From IMG/VR virus record IMGVR_UViG_3300026159_000398: 64,000 bases of DNA; one strand, 5' to 3'. Made by a program: the position numbers and the translations under genes. This document shows, in pieces, positions 3,288 to 55,744 of the stretch (positions within the stretch are counted from its first letter, which is position 1; each line of letters starts with the position of its first letter). A model generated the notes under the pieces. It saw only the letters and a list, made by a program, of their open reading frames with translations. It did no database searches and was not told the DNA's origin. The stretch is from a virus (taxonomy: Duplodnaviria > Caudoviricetes).

Positions 3288-3288
3288 T

Positions 3289-3737: not shown

Positions 3738-3924
3738 GAGCTGCATACTCCATTATTTCATTTGCTGCCTGCTCAATTTTAGCAAGTACTTGAATTCCAG
3801 GAAAGCTTAAATCTTCATTATCACGAAGTGTATTACAATAACGTTGAATGAGGTCTGCAGCTTTGGCAATACTATTAGCCTGCATCTCATCCATTTTTTC
3901 GAAATATTCTTTAAATTTACTCAT
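3730..3924 (-). CDS. Tagged small hypothetical protein
   Basis: MSKFKEYFEK start, TAATG overlap. Confidence 0.75.
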   Translation of the reverse strand: MSKFKEYFEKMDEMQANSIAKAADLIQRYCNTLRDNEDLSFPGIQVLAKIEQAANEIMEYAAHE

Positions 3925-4166
3925 TACTTAATTCCTTTTGATTTTAACCAACGCTTTATGCCATGAGGATATCCATCATTGATTTCGGCGTTTGATTTAC
4001 ACATTGAATGATTGATTTTATTAAACCACTTTTTGCGACTTTCTTCTGACATATCTTTGTACTGAGGAAGCTCACTAAAAAGTTTGAACATTTTTTCCGC
4101 AGACATTCTATTAGCACCGGGTATTCGTTGCTTTGCTGCTTCAAGATATTGGTTAAATTTACTCAT
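3924..4166 (-). CDS. Tagged small hypothetical protein
   Basis: MSKFNQYLEA start. Confidence 0.75.
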   Translation of the reverse strand: MSKFNQYLEAAKQRIPGANRMSAEKMFKLFSELPQYKDMSEESRKKWFNKINHSMCKSNAEINDGYPHGIKRWLKSKGIK

Positions 4167-4168
4167 TG

Positions 4169-4930
4169 TTATTCATCCTCTAATTCGTTGATTTCCATAT
4201 GCAAAAAATTTCTCCAGTAAAAACCAAAGATATCCTTGAGAATTGGATCAATTTTATAACTTAATTCTTCATCTGTTTTTGGGATTGTAAAGTGGAAAAG
4301 AAATTCGTCACCTTCTTTTAATAAAATAACATCAACATTGAATTTCTTAATCATGGCGGCTTTAATTTTGTTTGCGTCGGTTCTAGTCATCTTTTTATTG
4401 CCGGCCCACAATTTTTTCTGACGAATCAACATTTCATAATATTGAGATGGGACTTCAGATTTTTTACCACCCATGTATTTGTCACCACGCATCTGACGTC
4501 CTTCATAACCAGCTTGGTCATGGCGTCCAGTCAATAATTCTTCCATCGCATAGTCAGGTTCCATAGTAAGCCATTCAGCAGCTTCATCAGCATCTTGGAA
4601 CATGTAGTAAGCCATGATATCGAGAAGTTTTCCACGAACTTTGCCACCATCTGAAGTTTCCCAAACTGTGAGGGTTTTATTTGGGTAATATGCGTAACCA
4701 CCGCCACTGAGACCTGCGCCTTTCTTCAATTCAGGAGTAAGTGCAAGAATAACATCATAAAGATCATCAACTGAAAATCCTTCAACAGCGCGTGACATCA
4801 TAATTTCTTTGATGACTCGTGGAGAACCGTAAGCACGCAATTGTTCAATGGCGTCTTTTATTACTTCGGCGTCGTATTCTTGTGGTTGACGCTTTTTAAG
4901 TGCCTCAAGATATGTATGTAATCTTCCCAT
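4169..4930 (-). CDS. Tagged hypothetical protein (~253 aa)
   Basis: Start reassigned to MGRLHTYLEA, 1 nt after the upstream stop. Confidence 0.75.
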   Translation of the reverse strand: MGRLHTYLEALKKRQPQEYDAEVIKDAIEQLRAYGSPRVIKEIMMSRAVEGFSVDDLYDVILALTPELKKGAGLSGGGYAYYPNKTLTVWETSDGGKVRGKLLDIMAYYMFQDADEAAEWLTMEPDYAMEELLTGRHDQAGYEGRQMRGDKYMGGKKSEVPSQYYEMLIRQKKLWAGNKKMTRTDANKIKAAMIKKFNVDVILLKEGDEFLFHFTIPKTDEELSYKIDPILKDIFGFYWRNFLHMEINELEDE

Positions 4931-4931
4931 G

Positions 4932-5144
4932 TTATTTTCCCATTTCACGAACTAATGTGGATATGCGAATCATATCCATTGTTTCAATACCATGTTTCTT
5001 TTGGAATTCTTTAATGACCACGGAAGGCGGTACATCAGCTTTGTCAATTTCTTTATTGAGTTGCTTTGCTAATTTCTTATGTTCTTCTGGAGTCAATCTA
5101 TGCTTTCCAGTTGCCATTCCCATATAATCACTGAATTTGCTCAT
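4932..5144 (-). CDS. Small protein with a degenerate tag
   Basis: MSKFSDYMGM start (lacks the Glu). Confidence 0.65.
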   Translation of the reverse strand: MSKFSDYMGMATGKHRLTPEEHKKLAKQLNKEIDKADVPPSVVIKEFQKKHGIETMDMIRISTLVREMGK

Positions 5145-5835
5145 TTGTTTTTTCCTCATTTAAAAATATATTACTCTTTTCGAACAAAGCAACCTTGTTA
5201 TTTCTGACGAAGTCTTTAAATTCTTCAACGTACCATGTATCACTGAAGCCAATAGACTGAAGTCTTTCTGGCGGGGTGTACTTGACTTTTACCATGGCCA
5301 ATGAATTCAATCCAGGAAAAACTTTCTCGAAATAAGTTTTGTTGTATACAATCCAGTTGCCTTGGTCTGTAATTTTCATGAACAAGAAACTGAGAGGCTC
5401 ACGCATTGGACGAGGATATTTTTCTTTGAAACAAAGGTAGGTCTCTGTGTCATAGCATATTTCATAGAGCCAACGTTCCAATTTTGCAGGTAGTTGTCCT
5501 TTTTCTAATTTCTTAAACGGAAAACCTGCATAATTCTTTGATTCAATGATGTAGCGGAATTTCAATTCGTATGGTGGGTAAATGTCTCCAATCATGCTCT
5601 CGAGTTGTTGTTCATTATACTTGTAGACTCGATCACGATTGGTCATACCAGTTCTGGCACCACTGTTGGGTATTCTTATAAATGAAAGTCCTGATTCTTC
5701 AGTCAAGAAATTCGCACAAAAACGCTCGCCATTTTTTCCTTTACGAATTGCAGAGCGAGCAACATCGCTTCTAGATTTTCCAGACTTTGTAGTCTTTGGC
5801 GCAAGCTTTTCAAATTTCTCGACATTCAAATTCAT
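5128..5835 (-). CDS. PD-(D/E)xK nuclease, Holliday-junction-resolvase-like
   Basis: KGKNGER...RIPNSGA...GDIY...IESKNY, the layout typical of phage Hjc-like resolvases. Confidence 0.7.
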   Translation of the reverse strand: MNLNVEKFEKLAPKTTKSGKSRSDVARSAIRKGKNGERFCANFLTEESGLSFIRIPNSGARTGMTNRDRVYKYNEQQLESMIGDIYPPYELKFRYIIESKNYAGFPFKKLEKGQLPAKLERWLYEICYDTETYLCFKEKYPRPMREPLSFLFMKITDQGNWIVYNKTYFEKVFPGLNSLAMVKVKYTPPERLQSIGFSDTWYVEEFKDFVRNNKVALFEKSNIFLNEEKTNEQIQ

Positions 5836-6056
5836 ACTTTATCCTCTCTCACATTTGGGTCCTTTAGTTGTGGAAACACTCTTGGAGCGTCCATCAACGA
5901 AAGACAATCTTCTGCTTCTTTAATGATTTGTTCTAAATAATAAATAATATCATTACGCTTCATTTTTTCGCCGTCGCGAATGATAATTTCTGCTGATTTA
6001 ATTAAAATTGAAATTCTAGATAAAACTGCCTTCGGTATAGATTGTAGTGCTCTCAT
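5832..6056 (-). CDS. Hypothetical protein
   Basis: 74 aa ORF, ATGA-coupled. Confidence 0.6.
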   Translation of the reverse strand: MRALQSIPKAVLSRISILIKSAEIIIRDGEKMKRNDIIYYLEQIIKEAEDCLSLMDAPRVFPQLKDPNVREDKV

Positions 6057-6313
6057 AGTATTGCTATTGCCTCATTCTCTTTCTGAAACATTGCAAATTT
6101 TCGTGAATCCATCATATCACGAATCCAATCATTCATTCTATTAACAATATCTTCGCGAACCAATAATTCTTGTCTTTTATCAAGAGGTATAAGTCTAAAT
6201 TTATTTATTTCAGTTATGATTTCGGTTGGAGTATCACCTTGAATAAATAAATTCTCATACTCATAATCAATCACGACCTCCATTGATTCAGTTTGAGTTG
6301 TAAAAACTAGCAT
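6053..6313 (-). CDS. Hypothetical protein
   Basis: 86 aa ORF with GGAG RBS. Confidence 0.6.
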   Translation of the reverse strand: MLVFTTQTESMEVVIDYEYENLFIQGDTPTEIITEINKFRLIPLDKRQELLVREDIVNRMNDWIRDMMDSRKFAMFQKENEAIAIL

Positions 6314-6321
6314 GGGGTCTC

Positions 6322-7095
6322 CTACGAAAGTTTATCTTTTGCTTTCTCCGTGATATTTTCAAGCTTATGAACAAATGATTTTGGATTTACGAATGTCTTT
6401 TTGATAATTTCATTTTTAATTTGTTCTTTGACTTCCATAATTTCATTCTTTTCAAGCTCACCACTGAGTTTGAAGCGAATCTGTCTTGGCTGCCAAAGTG
6501 AAGTAACAATTTTGACTGCGGCACGGTCAGTATCAGGAGATTTATCTGCATTGACTGTGTTTAAAATTTTACGGCCAGAAACCGGATTAGAAAGTTCCAA
6601 AACAAAAATAATAGAACCATCTTCTTGACCTTCTTCAAAATAGCCACGAAGCAAATAAAAATTTGCACTATGACCTTTAAAATCAAATTGTTTAAAGTAT
6701 GGATTTTGAATGGTATTATTGATGAGCCACTTTTTTGATTTGGTAAAGTTGCCATCAATCCATTTGTTCCACGGCTTAAATGGGTGATTTAATTTAACAG
6801 AAAAGAATTTAGTTCCAGCTTGATTGCGAAGGTCAAAAAAACCTGTCAGAATTTTTGGTGGCAGGTTTGTATTGGTTAATTCTTCACCATCAACCATGAA
6901 ATATTTTTCAAGAATATTTTCGAATGCGGTCCCAAGTTCTTTGGTGTCTTTTCCTGCTTTCAATTTCATGTAGAGTGAATGATAAATAACCGTATTGGCG
7001 TGCATTTTTTCTTGCTTTGAAAGTGATCGTAAAGACATGGCACCGCCAGATACACCCATTCTGGCGTCTTCAATGTATGTTAAATATTCTTTCAT
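6322..7095 (-). CDS. Tagged protein, possible restriction-endonuclease-like fold
   Basis: MKEYLTYIED start; LGTAFE...FFDL...FFSVK spacing. Confidence 0.55.
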   Translation of the reverse strand: MKEYLTYIEDARMGVSGGAMSLRSLSKQEKMHANTVIYHSLYMKLKAGKDTKELGTAFENILEKYFMVDGEELTNTNLPPKILTGFFDLRNQAGTKFFSVKLNHPFKPWNKWIDGNFTKSKKWLINNTIQNPYFKQFDFKGHSANFYLLRGYFEEGQEDGSIIFVLELSNPVSGRKILNTVNADKSPDTDRAAVKIVTSLWQPRQIRFKLSGELEKNEIMEVKEQIKNEIIKKTFVNPKSFVHKLENITEKAKDKLS

Positions 7096-7349
7096 CTTTC
7101 CATCTCTTGATCAATAAGTTGTTGACGATATGCACGATGACGCTTTTTAATGGCATCACGTTTTGCAAAATGTTCCTTTTCTGCTTCTTTGGGATCTTTT
7201 TGAATTGTTTGTGATGAACCAAACCCAGTACAAGTTGGACATTGATAACGTGTACTATAAATATTATCATGTTCTATTTTCATATCTTGACCACATTTGG
7301 CACATTGTTTTGATTTTACAACTTCAAGATATTGTTCAAATTTATTCAT
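7092..7349 (-). CDS. Tagged small zinc-ribbon protein
   Basis: MNKFEQYLEV; CAKC...CPTC...TIQKDP, paralogous to 492-680. Confidence 0.75.
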   Translation of the reverse strand: MNKFEQYLEVVKSKQCAKCGQDMKIEHDNIYSTRYQCPTCTGFGSSQTIQKDPKEAEKEHFAKRDAIKKRHRAYRQQLIDQEMER

Positions 7350-7687
7350 GACATATTGTCCATTAGGATGATGGTTTTGCCTTGATCTTTTGCTTGTTGA
7401 ATAGCTTCGGTCATTGAGAAACTTTCATTTGGTTTTCCATAATACATTGCGTCTTTATTGTCATGAAGCCAACGTTGCATCAAGAGACTTTTGCGAGTGT
7501 ATTCATCAGAACCAATTTTAGTAGCTGATTTTACAGCAATGTCCACGTCTTTGACGTACTTTGTAGTCTCAATAAACTTATTGAAGTCCCACATGCCAAC
7601 AATTTTGATGCCATCACGCACAGTGTATGGAGGAAAATCAGGCTTCTTGGCTTTTGCAGCCTCAAAATAGTCATTAAAACGTGACAT
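7346..7687 (-). CDS. Tagged hypothetical protein
   Basis: MSRFNDYFEA start. Confidence 0.75.
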   Translation of the reverse strand: MSRFNDYFEAAKAKKPDFPPYTVRDGIKIVGMWDFNKFIETTKYVKDVDIAVKSATKIGSDEYTRKSLLMQRWLHDNKDAMYYGKPNESFSMTEAIQQAKDQGKTIILMDNMS

Positions 7688-7845
7688 TATTTTTTTTCCT
7701 TATTTTCTTTGTTTTCACGAACGAGTTTGGACAGACTTGATTCTTCAACGAAAACTTTGTCACTCATACCAACGAGAACTTCGTTAGTCTTTTTGTCAAG
7801 GTCTTCTTTTTTATGTCCAAAGTATCTTACAGCATTCCACAACAT
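7687..7845 (-). CDS. Small hypothetical protein (52 aa, below the ORF-track cutoff)
   Basis: AAGGAG RBS, MLWNAVRYFGHKKEDL..., TAATG overlap with the next gene. Confidence 0.6.
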   Translation of the reverse strand: MLWNAVRYFGHKKEDLDKKTNEVLVGMSDKVFVEESSLSKLVRENKENKEKK

Positions 7846-7857
7846 AGTCTTTACTCC

Positions 7858-8709
7858 TTAGATAATATCGTCTTCTTTTGCTGCCTTGACGAGGTCTTGC
7901 ATGCTTTTGAATATATTTAATTGTTTAGTTAATAGTTCTTGCTTTTTTTTCTTCTGCGCGCGATCGTATGCAATGATTCCAGCAAACGTGAGAGGCACCC
8001 AGTTCTTTTTGGCTTTGGCTTTTAGCAATCCACCAAAATCATTTATAACCACTTTAATGGTTCTGTCACCTGCCCAGGTAATTTCTTTTTTAAGTGACGT
8101 GACATTCTCAATACCAATTGCATTGCTCAATTGCTTTGAAAGTGCAGAACCTCTGCCCATCATTTCAGAAATAGTTTTTAAGACTTCCTTCTGAATATCA
8201 AATGAACGTTCATATATGAGAATGTATGGCAACGGTTTTTCAAAATAAATCTCTGCTGTTTCTCTAGTAATATTATTTCCTGAATGCTTGACATGAATGT
8301 AACCATTGCTGACATAACGATCAAGAATACTTTTCATTCTGAATCCAACTTCAGCATCAATCAAAAGGAATGGCAATTTATCAGATGACATTTTGCAGCG
8401 CACATCTATTATTTTCCATGAATACAAATCGTATGGAACTTCGAACCACCCTTTGGTATGAAAAATATTGAGGATGTCTTTTTTATCAGAATCAGTCAAA
8501 TTCGATTTGATGTAGGCTTTCATTTTCTGAAGCTGATAAAGTTGGTTGATGTTGAGTTCAGTGTACCACAAAAGTTCATTGAATTCTTTCACACAATGTT
8601 GTTCGATCTTTTTTGAGGTCGTCTGAACTTCCAAAAAAACGGGGTAGGTCACTATCCCGTTCTCAATTCGCTTCGTGGCCGATTTGATGTTGTATTGGTT
8701 TAGCTTCAC
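7858..8709 (-). CDS. Hypothetical protein (283 aa)
   Basis: Long ORF; GTG start overlaps the upstream stop. Confidence 0.7.
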   Translation of the reverse strand: MKLNQYNIKSATKRIENGIVTYPVFLEVQTTSKKIEQHCVKEFNELLWYTELNINQLYQLQKMKAYIKSNLTDSDKKDILNIFHTKGWFEVPYDLYSWKIIDVRCKMSSDKLPFLLIDAEVGFRMKSILDRYVSNGYIHVKHSGNNITRETAEIYFEKPLPYILIYERSFDIQKEVLKTISEMMGRGSALSKQLSNAIGIENVTSLKKEITWAGDRTIKVVINDFGGLLKAKAKKNWVPLTFAGIIAYDRAQKKKKQELLTKQLNIFKSMQDLVKAAKEDDII

Positions 8710-9206
8710 AGCTCAAAGACCTCATAAACTCCTTGTGAATCATGAAGGACGTTGAAGTTCGTGCAGTAATGAACATCAATGTCCCAATCCTCAGTTACTT
8801 CGTCAATCCATTTACAAAAATGGCCATCCACGTCATAATTGTTAAAATTAAAACAATAGTGACATGTATGAGGAAGAGAACCGCTATTAAGCACATAAAG
8901 AACAAGCTCTTTGAGAGCTGCCACAATTTTTGCATATTGAGCATCCCTGATTATATCATCTGCAGTTGTTAATGAAGTTATATTTAAGGTGCCATTTCCG
9001 AGGGTCATGGCGTTTGTAATGACGTTGGTTATACTTGAGGTTGAAGCTCCGACGGTGATCACGAGACCATTGGAAGCTGTGTATGTGGTGCCGCCTGAGA
9101 TGTGAGTGAGCATGTCAGCCCAGAAAGGAGCATCGAACTCGAGCAATTGGAAGACAAGACCCTTAACAAAACGGGTAATTTTGAATTTCAAGTGTACAGT
9201 TAACAT
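8706..9206 (-). CDS. Hypothetical protein with Thr/Ser-rich middle and Cys/His-rich C-terminus
   Basis: GAGG RBS; CHYC...HFC...HYC. Confidence 0.7.
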   Translation of the reverse strand: MLTVHLKFKITRFVKGLVFQLLEFDAPFWADMLTHISGGTTYTASNGLVITVGASTSSITNVITNAMTLGNGTLNITSLTTADDIIRDAQYAKIVAALKELVLYVLNSGSLPHTCHYCFNFNNYDVDGHFCKWIDEVTEDWDIDVHYCTNFNVLHDSQGVYEVFEL

Positions 9207-9250
9207 AGTTGCCTCTTTAAATATATTACACGAATATTAAAAAGAAGGCA

Positions 9251-9808
9251 TTAAATAACCATTATGCCATTCAAAATCAATCCTTCCTCAGGATTGCTGG
9301 CGATAATATAACGCGAAAGATTCTTTAATTCGTTTTGATAAATAAGATTATTGTGTGCTGTGGTCGCGTCAAGTGGAGCATCAGGCGCCTCAACGATCGT
9401 CATGAGCATGCTCGTGTACGCGACAGTTGAATAATAATACCCTTCTGTTTTATTGTCAAAACAAAGAATTTCGGTTTCTTCTGGAATGATGTCAAAGAAG
9501 TCAATTGGTTGAACTTCATCTGTATCTTCGTCGGGTGAGATGAATCTGACTGGCTCCTCATCGAAGCTTTGATAGACTAGAGAAAGGCCATCTTCGGTGG
9601 TAATTATTTTGATGTCTTTTTCCTGAAGGATATGCATCTTGTCCTTCGGAATCATTCGAATACTCAAAGCATCAGTATAAAAATTTACTGCTGAAAAATT
9701 GAGATTGAATTTAGTTACACGGTTTCCTTTGCGACTTGTATTTAAAAAAGAAAACACTTCATAATTGTCGTCGGTTATTTTGACGCTGTCTTTAGTCCTG
9801 ATAAACAT
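9251..9808 (-). CDS. Hypothetical protein, possibly a degenerate Hint fold
   Basis: GAGG RBS; ends ...GLILNGIMVI. Confidence 0.6.
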   Translation of the reverse strand: MFIRTKDSVKITDDNYEVFSFLNTSRKGNRVTKFNLNFSAVNFYTDALSIRMIPKDKMHILQEKDIKIITTEDGLSLVYQSFDEEPVRFISPDEDTDEVQPIDFFDIIPEETEILCFDNKTEGYYYSTVAYTSMLMTIVEAPDAPLDATTAHNNLIYQNELKNLSRYIIASNPEEGLILNGIMVI

Positions 9809-9821
9809 GATATCCTCGAGC

Positions 9822-10187
9822 TCATAATATAGAATCCTCTTTCATCAATTGTTGTAGTTGTTTTGTGAGCTCTGTGTTTATCTGTAATTCTCTTTTTGTT
9901 TGTCGTAATTCTCCTGCTTCAAATAAATCGTTTTTGAAGTCAGGGTCCAGCTTAAAAAAGAATTTATTAAAGGCTTTTGAATTAGCCAAATATTCTTTCG
10001 GTGCTATATATAAAGAAGCGTATGTTTCGCTGACAATTCCATTCCAACCGAAAAAAAGATAATTTTCAAAGGTTGGTTTGATATTTTTTTCTTGGCAGAA
10101 CCGCTTCATCTGACGGTCAAACTTCTGGATTTTCAAAATCCTTAGTTTATTACTCCAACCAAATGTAGGCGCAACGCTTGCATTCAT
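9822..10187 (-). CDS. Hypothetical protein
   Basis: 121 aa ORF; start uncertain. Confidence 0.55.
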   Translation of the reverse strand: MNASVAPTFGWSNKLRILKIQKFDRQMKRFCQEKNIKPTFENYLFFGWNGIVSETYASLYIAPKEYLANSKAFNKFFFKLDPDFKNDLFEAGELRQTKRELQINTELTKQLQQLMKEDSIL

Positions 10188-34178: not shown

Positions 34179-34481
34179 TTACTTTTTTTTGCCTTTCGCT
34201 TTGTCTGCTTCGACGCCCTTATCTTCAGGCTTTACTTTGGCATTAAGCTTCTGTTGTTCAACAGCTGCCTTACGATCATCATCACTGTTGAATTCTCCAC
34301 GTCCTTTGCAAACTGGACAAACTGCGTTGTCTTCTTTTTCAAGTTTGCCATAGCCCTTGCAGTTAGGGCAAGGAAATGCTGTATGACTTGCATTGCCGTC
34401 AAGTTTTTCTTCTTTTTTGGCAGCTTTCTTTGCGGCCTTTTTCTTTTTTGCTTCTTCAAGATAAAAATTAAAGTCTTTCAT
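34179..34481 (-). CDS. Tagged basic protein with DnaJ-type CxxCxGxG zinc finger
   Basis: MKDFNFYLEE; CPNCKGYG, CPVCKGRG. Confidence 0.75.
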   Translation of the reverse strand: MKDFNFYLEEAKKKKAAKKAAKKEEKLDGNASHTAFPCPNCKGYGKLEKEDNAVCPVCKGRGEFNSDDDRKAAVEQQKLNAKVKPEDKGVEADKAKGKKK

Positions 34482-34843
34482 TATTTTATGTCCTCATCTC
34501 CTTCGGTTTGAGCGGCTTTTTTAGCAGCTTGAATTATTTCTTCGCGTTTATTGGTTAAAAATGTTCTTGCGGTTACTTCAAGTTGATCTGTCAATTGGTC
34601 CATCATTTCACGACCAGCAATAGAGATCAAATATTCACCAAGTTCTTTTGGTGATATGTGTCCTTTACCATCAAGAAAAATGTTTTCCATAATGAGGTCG
34701 AGTTGTGCAAAGCGACCTTCATGACCAAGATAACCACCGACATTATCACCACGAAGATATGTAGCAATTCCTTTCTGTACTCTTTCAGACAGAAAACCTT
34801 TGCCAATATGCACTTGTTCAAGATATTGTTTGAATGTTCTCAT
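34481..34843 (-). CDS. Tagged hypothetical protein
   Basis: MRTFKQYLEQ start. Confidence 0.75.
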   Translation of the reverse strand: MRTFKQYLEQVHIGKGFLSERVQKGIATYLRGDNVGGYLGHEGRFAQLDLIMENIFLDGKGHISPKELGEYLISIAGREMMDQLTDQLEVTARTFLTNKREEIIQAAKKAAQTEGDEDIK

Positions 34844-34855
34844 AAATAATCCTTC

Positions 34856-35353
34856 TTAGAATTCTTGCTGTTCGGCTGTGTCGCGTTTTTCTTTTGCCAT
34901 CTTTTGGATTGGTTGTTCTTCAGATTCAGGTTCTCCTGTAGTTTCAGTCTCTTCAGGAACTTCAGAATTCTCTTCTCCTCCAAAAGACTTGTTCATATCT
35001 GCATCAACATTTACCGGTCCTTGCATTTTAAAACCACTTTCTTTGACTTGGTCCATAGCCGCTTTCATGATAGATTTAATCATGAAATCGCGTTGCTCAT
35101 TGTCCATTGGTTCATCAAAGTAGTCATTATATTTTTCAATAACTTCTTGAAGGTTCTTACCAGACAATTTAAGAAAAACTTTCTTGCCGTCTTTCTTACC
35201 ACTGAGTTCAAGGGAAATGCCAGCATCACCAGACATAACCATATTCATAAAGTCTTCAATATTCTTGAATTTAACTGTACGAACTTGATTGCCTTCACAA
35301 AAACTTTTCAATTCAGAAGGCATAACATCTTCTAAGTATTTGCCGAAACCCAT
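34856..35353 (-). CDS. Tagged acidic hypothetical protein
   Basis: MGFGKYLEDV start. Confidence 0.75.
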   Translation of the reverse strand: MGFGKYLEDVMPSELKSFCEGNQVRTVKFKNIEDFMNMVMSGDAGISLELSGKKDGKKVFLKLSGKNLQEVIEKYNDYFDEPMDNEQRDFMIKSIMKAAMDQVKESGFKMQGPVNVDADMNKSFGGEENSEVPEETETTGEPESEEQPIQKMAKEKRDTAEQQEF

Positions 35354-35607
35354 TATTTGACTCCTTTAAAATGAGCATTAACATAATTCACTGCAGCTTT
35401 CTCAGCTTCATCAGGGTCTTTATGTTGTTTCAGCATCGCAGCTCGCGCGGCATTTATAAGATCATTTCTTGATTTTCCGGCTTTTACCATTCCATCAAGA
35501 GTGGTTTTTAAATTGCCACCTTGAACAGCTGCATTTGTCTTTTCTTGTGTTGGCGCAGCCTTCATTTCTTGAGAAGACATTGCTTCGAGATATTCTTTCA
35601 AATTCAT
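35353..35607 (-). CDS. Tagged small hypothetical protein
   Basis: MNLKEYLEAM start. Confidence 0.75.
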   Translation of the reverse strand: MNLKEYLEAMSSQEMKAAPTQEKTNAAVQGGNLKTTLDGMVKAGKSRNDLINAARAAMLKQHKDPDEAEKAAVNYVNAHFKGVK

Positions 35608-35825
35608 TATTTGTCGCCTCTCATATAACGTTCTTTAACATGCGCATCATCAATCAAAAGGTTGAGTTCTTTGCGAATTGTCGCCATTATTTGATCGATT
35701 TGTTCTTCATAATCTTCATGATCAATTTCATTAGCTGAATCAAAAATTATTTCAGCTAAATCTTTTTCATCAAAATCAAACTTCTTTTTTCCTGCCATTT
35801 CAAGATAATCATTAAATGCTTTCAT
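35607..35825 (-). CDS. Tagged small acidic protein
   Basis: MKAFNDYLEM start. Confidence 0.75.
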   Translation of the reverse strand: MKAFNDYLEMAGKKKFDFDEKDLAEIIFDSANEIDHEDYEEQIDQIMATIRKELNLLIDDAHVKERYMRGDK

Positions 35826-36394
35826 TATTCAGCTCCATGCTTTTTCATTGCTTGTCTAGCTAAACTAATTTTTCTTTTTGCTTCTTCAGAATGTTTTCTT
35901 CCAAACATACCATTTTTAGAACCTTTAATATCTCGTTTAGCCATTCCATCTTTATATCGTGTTTGATAATTTTCATCATCAATTCGTTTAGAACATGCTA
36001 TTTTTATATTTAATCTTGTTTCTGATGAGCGTTTTTTACCTTTATTACCACGACGAATTTTTTCTTTATGTTCATCGGTTAAAGTTTTTCCAGTAAAAGT
36101 ATCACCACCATCTCCACCGGGAGTCATATTATAACCACTATTTTTAGAATTAAAAAATTTAATAAAATGTTTTTCTAAATTTGCTAATGTGACTTTATCA
36201 TTTATTTGGTCTTTGATAATTTCAAATCTAAAATTATCAATTCCATGTTTTCTTAAAGCACGAATAATATGTCTTTGACTATTTGTTTCATCAACTTCAT
36301 GTTGATATCTTTTAAATAATTGTCTTTCAGAACCAACATATTTTCCTATATATTTATTATTGGTTTCTGGATTAGTAAAACAATAAATAAACAT
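35825..36394 (-). CDS. GIY-YIG homing endonuclease
   Basis: MFIYCFTN...YIGK, GYNMTPGGDG, NGMFGRKHSEEAKRKIS; paralog of 25636. Confidence 0.9.
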   Translation of the reverse strand: MFIYCFTNPETNNKYIGKYVGSERQLFKRYQHEVDETNSQRHIIRALRKHGIDNFRFEIIKDQINDKVTLANLEKHFIKFFNSKNSGYNMTPGGDGGDTFTGKTLTDEHKEKIRRGNKGKKRSSETRLNIKIACSKRIDDENYQTRYKDGMAKRDIKGSKNGMFGRKHSEEAKRKISLARQAMKKHGAE

Positions 36395-37068
36395 TATATT
36401 TTCGAATGTTTCTCACTTAAAGAAATTAACACTTCCCAAAGTTGACGTTTAGGATGCTTCAACGATTCAAGGAACATGACTTCTTCGTGGAATGCTTGTT
36501 CGAGAATAGCGTTGTGTGTGCTAGGGTCAGTTACAAAGTCGTAGCAAATCATTTGGTAGCTTTCAGGCACATAGAGATAATTGCCTTGCATGATTGGGTC
36601 GCCGCCCATTCCGCGTGAAGAAACAGCAGGACGGAATCCTTTGCGAACGAAAGCAGCGAGTTTGTCGCCTGTGCCGTAGTCGCCAGTAATAACTATTGCT
36701 TTACCATAAACAACTCCACCATTCATTTCAAGTGCCGTTGTAAGAGCACATGCGTTCTCAAGGCCAATGCGTTTGATTTGCTGCATTTGAATTTGAGGAG
36801 GGTCAGTTGGTTTTGGCATTGGGTGGTCCATTCCCATTGGGTGACCGTTTCTCATCTTAATAGAATCACGAAGTTTGTTGGTTTCGCGTTGCAGCAATGC
36901 TTCACTGTAAATTCTATTATTCTTATTTGGCTTTTCGGCTCTTTGGAATTCGCCCTCAAGAGTAATCAGCTGAGCAGGCTTTCCTTTGACTTCAATTGTT
37001 TCTTCATTAAAGCCAAACTTATCAGATACCCAAGCATCCGAAATATATGGTCTCATTATTGCTTCCAT
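36394..37068 (-). CDS. gp21: Prohead protease (T4 gp21-like)
   Basis: NKNNRIY, MDHP (His), VSSRGMG (Ser), DFVTDPS (Asp). Confidence 0.95.
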   Translation of the reverse strand: MEAIMRPYISDAWVSDKFGFNEETIEVKGKPAQLITLEGEFQRAEKPNKNNRIYSEALLQRETNKLRDSIKMRNGHPMGMDHPMPKPTDPPQIQMQQIKRIGLENACALTTALEMNGGVVYGKAIVITGDYGTGDKLAAFVRKGFRPAVSSRGMGGDPIMQGNYLYVPESYQMICYDFVTDPSTHNAILEQAFHEEVMFLESLKHPKRQLWEVLISLSEKHSKI

Positions 37069-40716: not shown

Positions 40717-41124
40717 CTATATCGATTTCGCAACCACTGGTACTTTTAATGATGCAATTGATGCAAAGTGTTTTTTGATATCAGTGGCATTTTGTTTCGT
40801 TTTATCAATGCTTTCACCTACATAAAGCTTTCCATTGAACTTCTGAACCGGTAGAAAACCAGCGACGCTTTTATTGTAATTGACATTTGCTAATTGTGAG
40901 TTCATTTCACCTGTTTTTATAAGCCATCTGCGAATTTCATTATGAAGAACTCCTGCGCCTGCGCTTCTTGTCATAAACAATTTGCCATTGGTAATAATAC
41001 CACGACATTCATCAGGAGTATCAAAAAACTCTTGTTGTGAATCTATTCGTTGCATGAGGCTTTTGCCAAAATTACCTTGAATTTGGCCTTCAAGAATTTC
41101 TTCAATATATTTTTTAAAAATCAT
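40717..41124 (-). CDS. Tagged protein, RG-H-ES paralog 1
   Basis: MIFKKYIEEILEG; CRGII..KLFM...LHNEI...LYVGESI. Confidence 0.75.
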   Translation of the reverse strand: MIFKKYIEEILEGQIQGNFGKSLMQRIDSQQEFFDTPDECRGIITNGKLFMTRSAGAGVLHNEIRRWLIKTGEMNSQLANVNYNKSVAGFLPVQKFNGKLYVGESIDKTKQNATDIKKHFASIASLKVPVVAKSI

Positions 41125-41441
41125 AATGGCTCCGTTTTTTGTGTCATGGTCACATGAAATACCATGCCACGAATTACACTTTTATCTTTATTGAGCCATA
41201 AGACATAAATCTTATCTTGTTCTTCTGGAAACATCTTCAGTATGGCACGTCCTTCGTTCTCGGCTTGAATGCATTGACGATACTTCATTATCTCAAGCAT
41301 CTCTTCTGCTGTGAATTCTTCAATGACATGATCGCCACATTTCAATTGAAGCTTATCACATTTGGATTTTTCTAGTGAGTTAGAAGGCTTAAATACAAAT
41401 AGCATACAAATAGTTGCAAATAATACAAATAGTTTTTTCAT
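41121..41441 (-). CDS. Secreted/periplasmic hypothetical protein
   Basis: Signal-peptide-like MKKLFVLFATICMLFVFKPSNS. Confidence 0.65.
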   Translation of the reverse strand: MKKLFVLFATICMLFVFKPSNSLEKSKCDKLQLKCGDHVIEEFTAEEMLEIMKYRQCIQAENEGRAILKMFPEEQDKIYVLWLNKDKSVIRGMVFHVTMTQKTEPL

Positions 41442-41965
41442 GAGTCTATTTTCTCCAATATAATTTTGAGTCCTTTGCCACGTAATTTATTAAAACTCGT
41501 TTTGAACATTTTTGCAATTTTAGCTTTATTTTGTGGTCCTTTAAAATGACGCAGCGCATCATAACCATAACTTTCAGAGAGTTTTATTTCATCATTAAAG
41601 TCAACTTGCATCGCCAAGAACTTAACGAACGAAGGGTCCATTTCTGACCATAAATTTAAGAAGTTTTGTTCTCGTTTTATGATGTTGTCTATCATGAGTT
41701 TGCCAATCATTATATAATGAATTGTAGTATCATCACAGACATAATAATCATTTGGCATTATAATGAGGCGATCATTTACTACAACATTACTATTCTTTTT
41801 AACAATCTCTTTTCCAAAACGATTGCGTGAAATAATGTTATTCGCCATCTTGAGCCATTCTGGTAACTCATCTTTTTGAGATGGCTTCACATCAAGAGTA
41901 CCTTTAGCTCTTTCTTCTTTGAATTTCTCAGGCATCCATTCAAGATAGGATTGAAATTTATTCAT
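41438..41965 (-). CDS. Tagged protein, RG-H-ES paralog 2
   Basis: MNKFQSYLEW; RLII...IHYIM...IKLSESY. Confidence 0.75.
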   Translation of the reverse strand: MNKFQSYLEWMPEKFKEERAKGTLDVKPSQKDELPEWLKMANNIISRNRFGKEIVKKNSNVVVNDRLIIMPNDYYVCDDTTIHYIMIGKLMIDNIIKREQNFLNLWSEMDPSFVKFLAMQVDFNDEIKLSESYGYDALRHFKGPQNKAKIAKMFKTSFNKLRGKGLKIILEKIDS

Positions 41966-42383
41966 AAAAACCTTCTTTTGGTTTGGCGACGCAAATAATA
42001 TTAAATTTGGTCTTTAATATTGTTTTCATTTTTAAATAAACGTCTTCAATTGCATAAAAATCATCTCTGTCATAGGATTCTGCTAAGTATAATTTATTAT
42101 TAAATTTAAAAACTCCAATAGCGTTATCATATAAAAACAATTCTTTGAATCCTAGTCGTATTAGTTCACGTATTATATCATCATGCACAATTAGTGCTTT
42201 AGGGTTGCTTAACATAAATAATTTAGTTTTAGAGCCATCAACAACTGCTATTCCTCGTGCATCATTTGGAATTGTTTTAAATTCTTGCGCAGATTTAATA
42301 TCAACTAGTTGTGTTGATGGTGAATTGATGGTGTATTTGTCGCGCATAGAACTTATGACTGCTTCTAAATATGTTTTTACCAT
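41958..42383 (-). CDS. Tagged protein, RG-H-ES paralog 3
   Basis: MVKTYLEA; ARGIA..KLFM...VHDDI...LYLAESY. Confidence 0.75.
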   Translation of the reverse strand: MVKTYLEAVISSMRDKYTINSPSTQLVDIKSAQEFKTIPNDARGIAVVDGSKTKLFMLSNPKALIVHDDIIRELIRLGFKELFLYDNAIGVFKFNNKLYLAESYDRDDFYAIEDVYLKMKTILKTKFNIICVAKPKEGFYE

Positions 42384-42871
42384 GCAGCCTCCAATTCCAA
42401 TTCAAATCCACGTTTCTTCATTTTAGCTTGATATTCTTTTAACATGCCTTCTTGTTTATCATTCATTTCTTTGAGCTCTTCACTATAACTTTCAGACATC
42501 ATGAATTTGTTTGTTTTCCCGTGACGAGTAACAAGAATGAAGTCATTCATAAGAGATAATAAATCAAGATCAGGCATGTTAACATAATTAAAATATCTGA
42601 ACTTTTTTGGCAAATAACCATTCTCTACCATGACATTTATCATATCGGAATGAATTAATGTTCCACGTTTTGCTGGTTTTAATTCTTTATCTAGATTTTC
42701 CATAATAAAAAGATCACCTTTAAAAGTCATAAGACCACGAACATCAGCAGTAAAATTGCTTAAATGAGATGGATTTTTATAAATCTCTGCTACGGCTTGA
42801 TTGTCATACATTGGATAGCGTCCAAGAAGCACTTCGAGGTATTCTCTCATAAAAATTGTCCTAATTTTCAT
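42377..42871 (-). CDS. Tagged protein, RG-H-ES paralog 4
   Basis: FMREYLEV; VRGLM..DLFIM...IHSDM...FMMSESY. Confidence 0.75.
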   Translation of the reverse strand: MKIRTIFMREYLEVLLGRYPMYDNQAVAEIYKNPSHLSNFTADVRGLMTFKGDLFIMENLDKELKPAKRGTLIHSDMINVMVENGYLPKKFRYFNYVNMPDLDLLSLMNDFILVTRHGKTNKFMMSESYSEELKEMNDKQEGMLKEYQAKMKKRGFELELEAAW

Positions 42872-50802: not shown

Positions 50803-50950
50803 TTATTTTACTCCTATTGGATTCTCATAGAATTATATTCCAGAACTCGAAAAAAAATTAAAAAAAGTCACCAATTTTGGAATATAATTTAATAGGGCAA
50901 TCCCACCATAAAAGTTGGAACACCTGGTCAATCTCACTTAATATAATTTC

Positions 50951-51562
50951 ATGAAACAATTAGATCATTATCTTTTAGCGGTTCTTGAAGCAAAGCAAAT
51001 GAGCTCATTGAATGCTTTAATAGCTAAGATTAACTCTGGAAAGCCTGTGTATATTTTACTATCTGGTGGATTTGGCGCAGGCAAATCTCATGTAATCGAG
51101 AAAGTCCTTGGTATTCCTAAAACTGACATCGTAGATATCGATGAGATTAAAGTGTCACAGAATCTTAGTGTGCCAAAAGCAATCAATGAAATGAGAAAAA
51201 TTCTGCAAGAGCGCATGACAAAGAAGCAAAACATCATTCAACAAGGAACCAGCGCCAATCTGCAATTAACTAAAAATAAAATTATCCTTGCCAAAAAAGC
51301 TGGTTATGTGACTATTTTGTTTCGAATCGAACGTGATGTTGATGAGCAAGTTACCTCTTTATTTAAAAGAGGTGAAGAGACTGGTCGTGGTTATGAAAAG
51401 GACGATCCTTCGAAGCCAATGGAAGAGCGCATTAAAGCAGCAAAAAGTACTGTTGAATTTAAAAATCAAAAATCTCTTGAGGTTTTTGAAGCATTGAAAG
51501 ATTTGCCAGAATTGGATTATGTTCTCACATATAATACGACCACTGGTAAGGTAAGTGTATGA
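50951..51562 (+). CDS. P-loop kinase (zeta-toxin/PNK-like)
   Basis: LSGGFGAGKS, VDIDEI, IIQQGT, GY..., R..RG. Confidence 0.75.
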   Translation: MKQLDHYLLAVLEAKQMSSLNALIAKINSGKPVYILLSGGFGAGKSHVIEKVLGIPKTDIVDIDEIKVSQNLSVPKAINEMRKILQERMTKKQNIIQQGTSANLQLTKNKIILAKKAGYVTILFRIERDVDEQVTSLFKRGEETGRGYEKDDPSKPMEERIKAAKSTVEFKNQKSLEVFEALKDLPELDYVLTYNTTTGKVSV

Positions 51563-52188
51563 GTCAACCATCTAATTTTTTAGGTAAAAAACATTCTGAA
51601 GAATCAAAAAAGAAATTGAGTGATTCACATCTAGGAAAGATTCCATGGAATAAAGATAAAAAGTGGTCAGAAAATACAAAAAATAAAATAAGTAAAGCTT
51701 GTGAAGGCCGCATACCATGGAACAAAGGATTAAAAGGAGTACAAAAACATTCTAAGGCCACTAAATTAAAAATGAGTAAAATACATACTGGCCAAAAGCA
51801 CACAATCCAATCAAAACAAAAAATAAGTGAATCTTGGACTCCACGAATGATAGGAAGAGGCATAAAAGGACATCATAATGGAATTTATTATGATTCATCT
51901 TATGAGCTTCATTTCATGCAATTACTTGATGAATATAAAATTCCTTATGAAAGAGCAGATAATAAGAAATTTAGAGTGAAATATACTTTTGAAAACCAAG
52001 AAAGATTTTATTATCCTGATTTTTATTTACCAAGAGAAGGAAGTATTGTTGAAATTAAATCTTCATTTGGTTTAAATAATTTAGTAGTCCAATTAAAATT
52101 AGAAGCAGCTCAAAAACAGTACGGAACAAAGTTTATTGTTATAACAGAACAAGAAATTCCAGAATTAAAAAATAATCATTATGTTTAA
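51559..52188 (+). CDS. Homing endonuclease: NUMOD3 repeats plus TnsA-like PD-(D/E)xK domain
   Basis: KKHSEESKKK, IPWNK repeats; DSSYE...YYPDF...VEIK. Confidence 0.85.
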   Translation: MSQPSNFLGKKHSEESKKKLSDSHLGKIPWNKDKKWSENTKNKISKACEGRIPWNKGLKGVQKHSKATKLKMSKIHTGQKHTIQSKQKISESWTPRMIGRGIKGHHNGIYYDSSYELHFMQLLDEYKIPYERADNKKFRVKYTFENQERFYYPDFYLPREGSIVEIKSSFGLNNLVVQLKLEAAQKQYGTKFIVITEQEIPELKNNHYV

Positions 52189-53812
52189 ATTATATTGTGA
52201 AGCCATATCCAGTTCCAACGTGAACGTATTTGTGGTATTCCCGGGTAGATTTCAACCATTTACCAAAGGGCATTTTGATGGTGTTAAAACCGCTCTAGAT
52301 ATTGCTGGACCATATTTGAACAAACTGATTGTTTTGACGAGTGATATTCGAGGCGAAAAAAGCTTTCTGTCATTTGAAGAAAGAAAGTATTTAATAGAAG
52401 AAGGTGTAAATCACGATGCTAGAGTAGTTGTACGTCAGTTAAAAGAAGGAACTCCGTACAACTACAAAAGCATTCTGAATAGCATTCCTGAAATTGATTC
52501 ATCCAAACACCATTTAATTCTTTTAGTCACATCTGCAGATGACGCCAATAGAATTAAGAATGCGTTTCCAATTAACTCTCTTGAAGACATTGAGAACCTT
52601 GCAGGAAAAGCAGGATTCGAAAGACGCGTCAAAATGGTCAAGGATAAAATTGGTGATAAATTCAATCCAAAGACATTTGTCTTTTCAGCCATGGGCAAAA
52701 TTGTAATGCCTCGCATGAAAGAAGGCGGCCAAAAGATTTCTGGAACAAGAGCACGCGAAGCAATCAAAAACAATGATTGGAAAACCGTGCAGCAATTAGT
52801 TCCATACACCATAAACGAACACATAAAGACTATTTTAAAGAAACTAATTTCCATGGAAAATGCCGTAACACCACCTGAAATGAAAGCAGATAAAGGTCTC
52901 CATTTGGAACACCTTGAAAAAGCAATTACTCGACCATCACGTAAAGAAGCTGCTCTTGATATTCTGCAGAAACTCATAAATGCCAATAAGAATCTTGTTG
53001 TAACTCAAAAGATCGATGGCCGCCCAGTAATCATATTTGGTCGTGACATGGACAATAAATTCTTTATTGGCATGAAAGATGAAGTTCTCAAAGGACGATT
53101 CATGAAGTCGTACGACGACATTGAAAGCTTTCATTCATTTGACGAAAAGAAAGCTGGTGACAAAGCAGAAATGGTCAAAGGAAAACTTGGTGGCAAAATC
53201 AAAATGTTCACCACTTTATTTCAGACTCTTTCAGGCATGAAGATTCCTGCTGGAGTCGCGTACGCAGCTGATGTTTTGTTTTACCCAGGTTTTGGCAATA
53301 AATCAATGAAGAATAATATGTACGCCGTAAAGCCTAATACGACGTGGTACATTGCAACTAATAAAGACATTTCAGAAAGAATCAAAGCTGCAGAAATTGG
53401 GCTCGCTGTTCATACTCGTTTCAAAATGGATGGTGGAGTTTCTAATCCTGTGGCAGTCACGACCGCAACAAGCGGACTTCAACAGATTCCTCAAGTATTT
53501 ATTCCACGAACACAATTCAATCTTGAACCGTTGCGTGGTGTAGAATCAGACCTGGCTAAGTTCAAAAGAACTGGTGATGTTGAAGCAATAAAGAAAATAA
53601 GAAATAAACTTCTTGATAAATATCAACAATTGGATTTACGAGCAGAAGTAACCACAAGTGATACAAGTGATGAAGTTTCTTCAGACAAAGGTGAAGGACT
53701 TGTCGTGCACGATTCAACCAACGGCAACACATTCAAAATTGTAGATCTTGAGGGATTCACCAAACATGCTCGTGAAATTCATGCAACAAGAAAACAAAAT
53801 ATGTGGAGTTAA
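52181..53812 (+). CDS. Fusion of an HxGH (cytidylyltransferase-like) nucleotidyltransferase and an ATP-dependent ligase-like domain
   Basis: FPGRFQPFTKGH and ISGTRAR at the N-terminus; HLEH, TQKIDG, EGLVV, FKIV at the C-terminus. Confidence 0.75.
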   Translation: MFKLYCEAISSSNVNVFVVFPGRFQPFTKGHFDGVKTALDIAGPYLNKLIVLTSDIRGEKSFLSFEERKYLIEEGVNHDARVVVRQLKEGTPYNYKSILNSIPEIDSSKHHLILLVTSADDANRIKNAFPINSLEDIENLAGKAGFERRVKMVKDKIGDKFNPKTFVFSAMGKIVMPRMKEGGQKISGTRAREAIKNNDWKTVQQLVPYTINEHIKTILKKLISMENAVTPPEMKADKGLHLEHLEKAITRPSRKEAALDILQKLINANKNLVVTQKIDGRPVIIFGRDMDNKFFIGMKDEVLKGRFMKSYDDIESFHSFDEKKAGDKAEMVKGKLGGKIKMFTTLFQTLSGMKIPAGVAYAADVLFYPGFGNKSMKNNMYAVKPNTTWYIATNKDISERIKAAEIGLAVHTRFKMDGGVSNPVAVTTATSGLQQIPQVFIPRTQFNLEPLRGVESDLAKFKRTGDVEAIKKIRNKLLDKYQQLDLRAEVTTSDTSDEVSSDKGEGLVVHDSTNGNTFKIVDLEGFTKHAREIHATRKQNMWS

Positions 53813-53814
53813 AA

Positions 53815-54492
53815 ATGCCACCTAGAGGTTTTAAATGTTCTAAAGAAACTAAAGAAAAAATGAGTAAAAGTAAAAAAGGAAAAGTTTCTAATCGTAAAGG
53901 ACAAAAAGATTCTGAAATTACTCGATTAAATAAAAGTAATGCACATTTAGGAAAACAATGTTCTGAAGAAGCTAAATTAAAATTGCATAATATTCATGTT
54001 GGTAAAGTATTATCAGAAGAAACAAAACAAAAGATGCGCAAGCCAAAATCGGATATTCATAAACAAAAAATAAGTCAATCATTAAAAGGAAAAAAATTCT
54101 CAGAACAACGCAAAAATAGATTAAAAGAAAATTGGTCTCCAAACCCAAAAAGAAATTATGGTAAAGGAGGTATTTATAATGGAATTCCATTTGATTCTTC
54201 TTACGAACTCAAATTCATGCAACTTCTTGACGAATACAAAATTCCTTATGAAAGAGCAGACAATAAGAATTTCAGAGTAAAATATATTTTTGAAAATCAA
54301 GAACATTATTATTATCCTGATTTTTATTTGCCTAGAGAAGGAAGTGTTGTGGAAATTAAACCATTTTATAAATTAACTGAAATTGGTACATTAACTAAAT
54401 TAAATGCAGCTAAAGAAGTATATGGCAATAATTTTATTATTATTACTGAAAAAGAACTGCCAGAACTTATGAAAGGAAAAAACAATGTTTAA
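53815..54492 (+). CDS. Homing endonuclease, paralog of 51559
   Basis: SKETKEKMS/SEETKQKM repeats; DSSYE...YYPDF...VEIK. Confidence 0.85.
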   Translation: MPPRGFKCSKETKEKMSKSKKGKVSNRKGQKDSEITRLNKSNAHLGKQCSEEAKLKLHNIHVGKVLSEETKQKMRKPKSDIHKQKISQSLKGKKFSEQRKNRLKENWSPNPKRNYGKGGIYNGIPFDSSYELKFMQLLDEYKIPYERADNKNFRVKYIFENQEHYYYPDFYLPREGSVVEIKPFYKLTEIGTLTKLNAAKEVYGNNFIIITEKELPELMKGKNNV

Positions 54493-55744
54493 TCAATATC
54501 TTGAAAATATACTTTCCAATGCGTTTCTCGAAGGTGGCAACGTTGCCGTTCGCAGCGGAGATAAATGGATTGGCGCGCAAAAGATTGACGTCAAAACTTA
54601 TGGTCGTGAAGCTTCAAGAGACGCTATCAAAGAAGTTCTGCACGCTCTTAATAAGAAACTACAACTGTGGAATGCTAAAGACATCGACAATGGTTTGATG
54701 CTTGCTGGTTCTGGCAAAGCATTATTCAATACCTCTATTAGTGATGAAGAGTTTCTTACTCATAAACCTCTTGTTGGTGATGTTGACGTCCAGATTCCCC
54801 TTGAAGCCAAACCTGCACTTGAAAAGATCTTAAAGCCGGGCGCCAGATTCGGCAAAGCAATTTATATTGGTGCTGGCGAAAAAGCTCAAGGTGGCGATCA
54901 AGAAGGTGCTCAAATAAATACGCTCTTTAAACTGCCTCTCGGTGATGGCGTAAATGCGCAATTTGACTTCGAATTCGTTGGATATGAAAAGAAAACGAAG
55001 CTGCCATCTGAATGGAGCCAATTTTCACACGGTTCATCATGGCGTGACACTTCTGTACAAATTAAAGGTGTACTGCATAAATACTTGCTTCGTGCTGTGG
55101 CTGCTGGTAAAATCAAAATAGCAAAAGTCACGACTCCTGCTGGAACCAAAATCAAAGAAGAACCAATAAAAGAACTTGCATTCTCTGTCGCTAAAGGTCT
55201 TCGCGTAAAAATGGTGCCTCTGGCAGATTATCTCGCTAACAAGCGAGTTCCTGATGAAAACAAAATCAAGCTTCTCAAGAATCTTGAAAAAGTAACTGGT
55301 AAAACTTCATTGCAACTCAAACGTGAAAAAGATATCATGATTGAAATGCCAACCGCAAGTTCAGAATACGTTACTGATGTTCAGCAAATCATGACTGATA
55401 TTGGATTGAAGTATAATAAAGCAGATGTGGATTCATTTGTTGGTGTGATTCAGATGCTCAAGGAAATGCCTGCAGCAAACATCACGAATATCTTCAATAA
55501 TTTTGTTGATTTATTATTTGAGCAGGAAATAGAAAACCCTGCAAATTATGCAGGGTCTGAAAAAGAAAAGATTCGTAAAGCTGCTGAAGTTGATGTCGCT
55601 GTGAAAAAAGCAGGAATAGACTACTTCATGCAAGAATTCCCTGCTTTGAAAGGACTTTCTCAATCGGTAAATCAACGACTCGTCGATTGGCAAAAAAATT
55701 ATGGCAAGCGTTATCAAGCTCGAAAAGAGGTTGGTACGGAATAG
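54485..55744 (+). CDS. Tagged Pol-beta-superfamily nucleotidyltransferase-like protein
   Basis: MFNQYLEN start; LAGSG...GDVDVQ...AQFDFE. Confidence 0.7.
   Translation: MFNQYLENILSNAFLEGGNVAVRSGDKWIGAQKIDVKTYGREASRDAIKEVLHALNKKLQLWNAKDIDNGLMLAGSGKALFNTSISDEEFLTHKPLVGDVDVQIPLEAKPALEKILKPGARFGKAIYIGAGEKAQGGDQEGAQINTLFKLPLGDGVNAQFDFEFVGYEKKTKLPSEWSQFSHGSSWRDTSVQIKGVLHKYLLRAVAAGKIKIAKVTTPAGTKIKEEPIKELAFSVAKGLRVKMVPLADYLANKRVPDENKIKLLKNLEKVTGKTSLQLKREKDIMIEMPTASSEYVTDVQQIMTDIGLKYNKADVDSFVGVIQMLKEMPAANITNIFNNFVDLLFEQEIENPANYAGSEKEKIRKAAEVDVAVKKAGIDYFMQEFPALKGLSQSVNQRLVDWQKNYGKRYQARKEVGTE

Follow-up and report, generated by a model that had tools for sequence, protein, structure and literature searches.

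A predicted end-repair operon with capsid-targeting-like leaders in a T4-like phage

The T4-like phage of IMG/VR record IMGVR_UViG_3300026159_000398 was analyzed over a window of 64,000 nucleotides (the whole stretch of DNA under study, in which positions are given below unless a genome position is indicated), with a focus on a plus-strand operon encoding three enzymes, here called open reading frames (ORFs) A, B and C. ORF A is a predicted P-loop kinase of the Zeta-toxin/polynucleotide kinase (PNK) type, ORF B joins a domain resembling nicotinamide mononucleotide (NMN) adenylyltransferases (NMNATs) to the Pfam domain DUF6267, for which an RNA-ligase fold is predicted, and ORF C is a putative Pol-beta-fold nucleotidyltransferase. 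The explanation favored here, to which we give a probability of about one half, sees in the operon a heal-fill-seal set that would repair breaks in nucleic acid and is addressed to the phage head. The source record (205,232 bp, completeness estimate 83%) encodes a T4-type portal, baseplate protein, major head protein and prohead protease.

In the proposed scheme, ORF A would phosphorylate 5'-OH ends, ORF C would then add the missing nucleotide(s) onto the 3'-OH, and the DUF6267 domain of ORF B, adenylylated on K277, would seal the break, be it in RNA or DNA. The NMNAT-like domain, of the HIGH-signature type, may serve the fused ligase by making or regenerating an adenylyl donor (e.g. NAD+ from NMN and ATP) or, alternatively, by adenylylating a phosphate end. 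As the N-terminal leaders of these proteins resemble the T4 capsid-targeting sequence (CTS), the leader-bearing proteins would probably be built into the prohead core, trimmed by a gp21-type protease and delivered with the DNA. A precedent for part of this set is found in RNA ligases that pair with RlaP-family Pol-beta nucleotidyltransferases, which add 1–2 nucleoside monophosphates at damaged RNA 3' ends (PMC12776372, PMC7824862).

Domain assignments of the three enzymes

ORF B is organized into a leader (residues 1–12, disordered in the structure model), a HIGH domain (~13–225), a linker (226–239) and the DUF6267 domain (~240–543). The N-terminal domain matched CTP_transf_like (PF01467) with 23.6 bits against a cut-off of 21 and TIGR00125 with 30.8 against a cut-off of 27.7, and its top fold matches were NMNATs, NadM and NadR among them; the NMNAT, NadD and PPAT equivalog models all scored far under their cut-offs on ORF B, the generic domain model alone passing. 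The motifs GRFQPFTKGH and ISGT were both confirmed and place the domain among the HIGH-signature nucleotidyltransferases, despite the replacement of the first His of HxGH by Thr (TKGH).

The C-terminal part of ORF B matched DUF6267 (PF19782) with 64.5 bits against a cut-off of 27 (residues 241–481, profile positions 3–234 of 376), and with 61.1 bits in a search of the phage's own genome. K277 lies in a QKIDG motif, and EGLVV and FKIV are also present. Across an alignment of 113 DUF6267 sequences, K277, D279, G280 and G506 are invariant while E505 and K519 are conserved in at least 90%, so that motifs I (KxDG), IV (EG) and V (K) of the covalent nucleotidyltransferases fall on invariant or near-invariant columns, in a domain modeled with the adenylyltransferase-domain fold. 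The ligase fold surfaced with VIA-align only, which gave RNA ligases as the closest ligase folds, whereas Foldseek with the whole ORF B model returned matches to the N-terminal domain only. At E ≤ 0.1, ORF B matched neither RNA_ligase (PF09414) nor RNA_lig_T4_1 (PF09511), searches of the genome with the same two families gave matches at other loci and none at ORF B, and the DUF6267 profile returned noise only, and no ligase, among PDB sequences. The ligase-superfamily reading is thus drawn from fold and motifs and not from sequence similarity: judged by its structure model, DUF6267 is a newly recognized, predicted RNA-ligase-fold domain. A literature search found no paper on DUF6267. The genome holds three ligase-superfamily genes, ORF B included. 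Elsewhere in it, a canonical ATP-dependent DNA ligase (PF01068, 60–62 bits) with an OB domain was detected, as was a 399-aa ORF with sub-threshold RNA_ligase and RNA_lig_T4_1 matches.

ORF C gave no Pfam match at E ≤ 0.1 and its 41 relatives gave none at E ≤ 0.01, RlaP (PF10127) included. Its residues G75, S76, D99, D101 and D161, which provide the hG[GS], [DE]x[DE] and third carboxylate of the Pol-beta superfamily on a palm fold, are invariant in the 41 homologues, and the protein best resembles the palm and thumb of family-X polymerases, whose full-length members also have fingers and 8-kDa HhH domains. ORF C is assigned to a newly defined, putative PolX-like nucleotidyltransferase family that Pfam does not cover. 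Directly after the Glu of the leader, a GGN is invariant in all 41 homologues (54485–54545 in the window); if cleaved after this Glu, mature ORF C would start with GGN, and a free N-terminal Gly might be of importance to catalysis or folding. A complex prediction for the ligase domain of ORF B with ORF C scored 0.00, a value that bears neither way on binding.

ORF A matched Zeta_toxin with 36.4 bits against a cut-off of 22.3 (E 4.6e-9), with weaker Pfam matches to KAP_NTPase and AAA_33. It carries a Walker A motif (GGFGAGKS) followed by IVDIDEI, which supplies the downstream catalytic Asp of a Zeta-toxin/PNK-type P-loop kinase. In a large protein collection only four close homologues were found (54–91% aa identity), no match was obtained against phages by tblastn or in a scan of viral contigs, and PDB sequences gave marginal adenylate-kinase matches only. 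ORF A is therefore regarded as a predicted Zeta/PNK-type kinase specific to this phage lineage.

A preliminary description of the operon, made from the DNA letters alone, had named a P-loop kinase, an HxGH-type domain joined to a domain with covalent nucleotidyltransferase motifs I, IV and V, and a Pol-beta nucleotidyltransferase with GS...DxD...D. The kinase is borne out by the Zeta_toxin match and Walker A motif, the fusion by Pfam, motifs and fold, and the other motifs by their conservation among homologues; of the HxGH label, the two motifs on which it was based are real and the first His is absent.

Domain linkage and N-terminal leaders

The domains of ORF B and ORF C recur together in other phages. 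A DUF6267-domain scan of protein representatives gave 194 matches. Proteins starting with an ORF C-type, or EGGN, nucleotidyltransferase domain include EGGN-DUF6267 fusions (P0084, P0115, P0127, P0164, P0193 and P0220), EGGN-DUF6267-HIGH fusions (P0121 and P0141) and one EGGN-HIGH fusion (P0073). HIGH-DUF6267 fusions (P0074, P0159, P0184, P0197, P0217, P0219 and P0222) and DUF6267-HIGH fusions (P0006, P0102 and P0125) were also found. Homology of the N-terminal domain of the EGGN fusions to the ORF C family was supported by hhalign (probability 95.9%, E 5.4e-9). P0073 (478 aa, from a 39-kb metagenomic contig) consists of an ORF C-family domain and a C-terminal HIGH nucleotidyltransferase (GFSPISHMGH ... 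SGTNLRK) without a ligase domain, and RecA/UvsX-like and DnaB-like genes lie upstream of its gene.

DUF6267 matches were obtained in 461 phage records, for the most part T4-like cyanophages, and in several of the matches listed the match extends into an annotated “cytidyltransferase”. In cyanophage Syn1, the DUF6267 gene adjoins a “cytidyltransferase” gene downstream of the gp41 helicase, and the encoded protein matches the N-terminal domain of ORF B (E 1e-6); ORF B is therefore a fusion of two genes that are separate neighbors elsewhere. DUF6267 sits in the replication module in both Syn1 and Methylophilales phage Melnitz, the DUF6267 protein of the latter being tagged, and by BLASTP the genes upstream of DUF6267 in these two phages are not ORF C homologues. 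On a metagenomic T4-like contig (L007, positions 7394–10012), an ORF C homologue lies between a haloacid dehalogenase (HAD) phosphatase, which matches the phrog_415 “polynucleotide kinase” (E 3.9e-9), and a 304-aa ligase-like protein with KVDG and EGLV...K motifs that matches the DUF6267 profile over its first 76 columns only (hhalign 77%). By these matches, L007 is a putative phosphatase version of the module, with a PNK-type HAD phosphatase in the place of the kinase, so that both phages combine a predicted end-healing enzyme with polymerase-like and ligase-like ones. The functional linkage of the three genes suggested previously is thus stronger than could be known from the window for the HIGH, DUF6267 and Pol-beta domains, since many other phages have these as fusions or in adjacent genes, but does not extend to the kinase, which occurs in close relatives only.

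The leaders were compared with the T4 CTS, MKTYQEFIAE (PMC8442874). Using the pattern M.{2,5}[YF][LIFMC]E near the ORF start, leader-like starts were found in 28 of the 269 ORFs of the genome, ORF B and ORF C among them, against ~2 expected, and all 28 tagged ORFs lie at 39.6–100.3 kb of the genome, in the neighborhood of the genes for the major head protein and the prohead protease. Of the “packaging-type” N-termini noted in the preliminary description, those of ORF B and ORF C resemble the T4 CTS; the leader of ORF A fits only loosely. Relatives of ORF C start, for example, MKTFKTFIAE-GGN or MITFKQFIAE-GGN, the strict pattern being present in 31 of 60, and gp100 of Campylobacter phage CP220 has the leader MKLSELMFILE-GGN. 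In 29 of 106 stand-alone DUF6267 proteins the same strict pattern directly precedes the first conserved motif. Relatives of ORF B begin with MSF.AYLE, and all three L007 proteins start MxSF..F..E. In total, leaders up to 7/10 identical to the T4 CTS were found on unrelated families in many phages, and in the structure models of both ORF B and ORF C the leader is of low confidence. Many homologues in other lineages lack the leader, and the pattern fits a modular, added address label. The window also encodes a gp21-type prohead protease (phrog_207 head maturation protease, E 2.4e-26), so that both a CTS-like leader on unrelated proteins and a protease of the type expected for T4-type capsid targeting are present.

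Beside the operon, tagged ORFs form arrays (Table 1), three of them on the minus strand of the window. These ORFs are mostly small (61–257 aa, with one of 507 aa) and their leaders are nearly alike (e.g. MSKFKEYLE, MSRFKEYLE, MNKFNQYLE, MKDFNFYLE); in the ORF at 2293–2730 the leader is present twice, ~26 residues apart.

Locus and homing endonuclease genes

The plus-strand operon was found as previously described, with all five ORFs in place (Table 1). They form one translationally coupled chain with overlaps of 4–10 nt, flanked on both sides by minus-strand genes, and in this genome genes for a gp41-type helicase and primase adjoin the operon. A DNA search of phage records with the operon gave no match. 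The region upstream of ORF A is a possible promoter, judged by its sequence elements: the 9-mer of its upstream element also occurs 5' of the divergent baseplate gene and of a head-region gene for a 403-aa protein, and the GAATATAAT element 5' of ORF A is indistinguishable from a sigma-70 -10 box. No enrichment of the T4 late-promoter motif TATAAATA was seen in the window (5 matches vs 4.1 expected).

Table 1. Positions of the operon genes and of other features discussed in the text. Positions are those of the window unless marked as genome or C1.
Feature	Position	Strand	Description
Upstream region	50877..50950	+	possible operon promoter; GGAATATAAT element at ~50880-50889, second AATATAAT right before ATG
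ORF A	50951..51562	+	203 aa; predicted Zeta-toxin/PNK-type P-loop kinase; leader MKQLDHYLLAVLEA
HEG1	51559..52188	+	209 aa; NUMOD3 repeats and TnsA/EndoI-like nuclease domain
ORF B	52181..53812	+	543 aa; NMNAT-like HIGH nucleotidyltransferase fused to DUF6267; leader MFKLYCEA
HEG2	53803..54492	+	229 aa from GTG start, 225 aa from ATG at 53815; HEG1 paralogue
ORF C	54485..55744	+	419 aa; leader MFNQYLENILSNAFLE, invariant GGN, Pol-beta-fold nucleotidyltransferase, helical C-terminal domain
Operon (five ORFs)	50951-55744	+	
gp21-type prohead protease	36394-37068	-	
Array of tagged ORFs	1542-7687	-	
Array of tagged ORFs	34179-35825	-	
Array of tagged ORFs	40717-42871	-	
Array of tagged ORFs	genome 97176-100349		
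Other ligase-superfamily ORF	C1:988-2121	+	outside window
Other ligase-superfamily ORF	C1:171631-172830	+	outside window

The two remaining genes of the chain are homing endonuclease genes (HEGs) located at its gene junctions. HEG1 and HEG2 both matched NUMOD3 in Pfam (E 1.1e-15 and 1.7e-11, respectively), with additional DUF7487, TnsA-like and Phage_endo_I matches for HEG1, and share 51% aa identity. HEG2 is orthologous to a HEG at the same junction in a relative, L004 (61% aa identity), where HEG1 is absent and the kinase gene directly abuts ORF B; ORF B shares 86% aa identity with its counterpart in the relative lacking HEG1. That two HEGs had inserted into the operon, as proposed from the window, is in agreement with these data, their mobility being borne out by the relative without HEG1. 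The nuclease joined to the DNA-binding NUMOD3 repeats is TnsA/endonuclease-I-like (PD-(D/E)xK-type) rather than GIY-YIG or HNH, and the DUF7487 matches of both HEGs are at or under the cut-off of that family.

Proposed role, alternatives and known systems

Among the three roles suggested in the preliminary description, repair by end healing and sealing is the best fit, as judged from the PNK-type HAD phosphatase of L007 and the RNA ligase-RlaP pairing. Several points weigh against a head-addressed repair set. The kinase may be a lineage-specific addition, being found in close relatives only, and no ordinary repair scheme known to us needs an NMNAT-like domain. ORF C matches neither RlaP nor another Pfam nucleotidyltransferase family, as far as its sequence can tell, and the Glu before GGN could belong to the enzyme itself, since it is nearly invariant there. 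As regards the leaders, the annotated cyanophage DUF6267 protein Syn1_160 has none, and those of this phage end in Y-L-E, Y-C-E or F-L-E and not in (I/L)-x-E, which we take to be the form of T4 cleavage sites.

The same enzymes could instead work in the cytoplasm of the infected cell only, in the manner of T4 Pnkp and Rnl1, where they would mend tRNAs or other RNAs that host nucleases have cut. In that case the leader would not be a packaging signal and might, for example, reflect a gene start that is prone to recombination or related to translation. To our knowledge, T4's own repair enzymes are not packaged. The nearest ligase folds to DUF6267 are those of RNA ligases, and the RlaP-ligase precedent is one of cytoplasmic RNA repair (PMC12776372, PMC7824862). 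This explanation is nevertheless considered rather unlikely, given that the leader is disordered, occurs on unrelated families with up to 7 of 10 positions of the T4 CTS and ends in Glu before the first conserved motif, and that every tagged ORF of the genome lies in its head-gene part.

Less probable still is that the kinase and the NMNAT-like domain form a NadR-like pair for the salvage of nicotinamide riboside, by which NAD+ would be restored after the action of host NADase defenses, with the ligase-like domain using or sensing NAD+. For NAD+ salvage, jumbo phages carry HIGH nucleotidyltransferases joined to a P-loop kinase or a Nudix domain (PMC7824862), which speaks for such a pair, as do the NMNAT folds, NadM and NadR included, and the GRFQPF(T/H)xGH and SGT motifs of the N-terminal domain. 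The equivalog scores of this domain do not, however, support a dedicated NMNAT or NadD, the kinase matches Zeta/PNK-type models and no nicotinamide riboside kinase model, and neither the repeated fusion to ligase-fold and PolX-like partners nor the L007 phosphatase would be explained. Searches of the 83% complete genome found no Nampt, nor any RtcB, NAD-dependent ligase or phrog_415 PNK. The earlier suggestion of NAD+ restoration is thereby narrowed to a possibility for the kinase and NMNAT-like domain only, in a genome without Nampt.

A replication set, in which DUF6267 and its partners would seal and fill Okazaki fragments and take the place of a DNA ligase reportedly missing from T4-like cyanophages, would agree with the adjacent helicase and primase genes and with the replication-module location in Syn1 and Melnitz. 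It is very unlikely here because the genome has, besides a third, weakly RNA-ligase-like ORF, the canonical OB-domain ATP-dependent DNA ligase, and because a replication enzyme would hardly be expected to carry a head-targeting leader. Hardly any weight is given to nucleotidyltransferases that make or destroy small signaling nucleotides and so jam host immune signaling, since family-X polymerases match ORF C better, over both palm and thumb, and the fused partners are ligase-fold, HIGH-nucleotidyltransferase and end-healing enzymes rather than effectors or sponges; nothing in the analysis supports the decoying of immune nucleotides envisaged earlier.

Phage heal-and-seal repair and T4 capsid targeting are both already known in kind. 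For DUF6267, the present analysis provides a predicted function, that of a ligase-type adenylyltransferase, in 461 phage records, and many independent gene fusions tie it and the PolX-like family to an NMNAT-like enzyme; given the canonical DNA ligase encoded elsewhere in the genome, DUF6267 is not simply a missing replicative ligase. The window adds the two HEGs and a dedicated kinase that would complete the heal-fill-seal logic. More tentatively, T4-like phages of many environments might use a T4-type tag to load a ready-made break-repair kit into the capsid, to be injected along with their genome. Such a kit would contain a kinase or phosphatase for end healing, a miniature polymerase of the PolX-like kind and a ligase family not recognized before, coupled to an NMNAT-like enzyme. 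If so, repair could precede phage gene expression, whether of breaks acquired extracellularly or during entry or of host RNAs that defense nucleases have cut. Should the leaders be genuine capsid-targeting signals, one could read from sequence which proteins uncultured T4-like phages package and inject, and repair enzymes, not described as cargo for T4, would be among them.

The predicted chemistry of the operon corresponds to that of T4 Pnkp (kinase/HAD phosphatase) with RNA ligase 1, a tRNA repair pair, and of the RNA ligase-RlaP (PF10127) pairs of bacteria and phages. By analogy, the shared activities would be a 5' kinase (in L007 a PNK-type HAD phosphatase), a Lys-AMP-forming ligase-superfamily enzyme and a Pol-beta nucleotidyltransferase possibly restoring lost nucleotides. 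The three operon proteins do not, however, belong to these families by sequence, and the operon adds an NMNAT-like domain on the ligase and head-targeting-like leaders. The folds closest to DUF6267 are those of nick-sealing RNA ligases, namely Naegleria NgrRnl (Rnl5, PDB 5cot), T4 Rnl2 (1s68) and the ligase domain of fungal Trl1 (9r3w), from which it differs in having no detectable sequence similarity, a long helical insert between motifs III and IV and none of their usual accessory domains identified. ORF C compares with the family-X repair polymerases, notably the minimal Pol X of African swine fever virus (ASFV), which works with the ASFV ligase.

The HIGH domain of ORF B differs from NadM, NadR and archaeal-type NMN adenylyltransferases by the Thr in place of the first His and by its low equivalog scores, and it is fused to a ligase fold and not to a Nudix or kinase domain. 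The leaders share with the T4 CTS, which is carried by internal proteins IPI–III and removed by the gp21 prohead protease, a length of 7–16 residues, the same hydrophobic pattern, a Glu end and an occurrence on unrelated proteins, in a phage that encodes a gp21-type protease and clusters its tagged genes with head genes. They differ from the T4 system in that the putative cargo includes large enzymes, 28 ORFs are tagged and the local consensus is (F)xxY(L/I/F)E.

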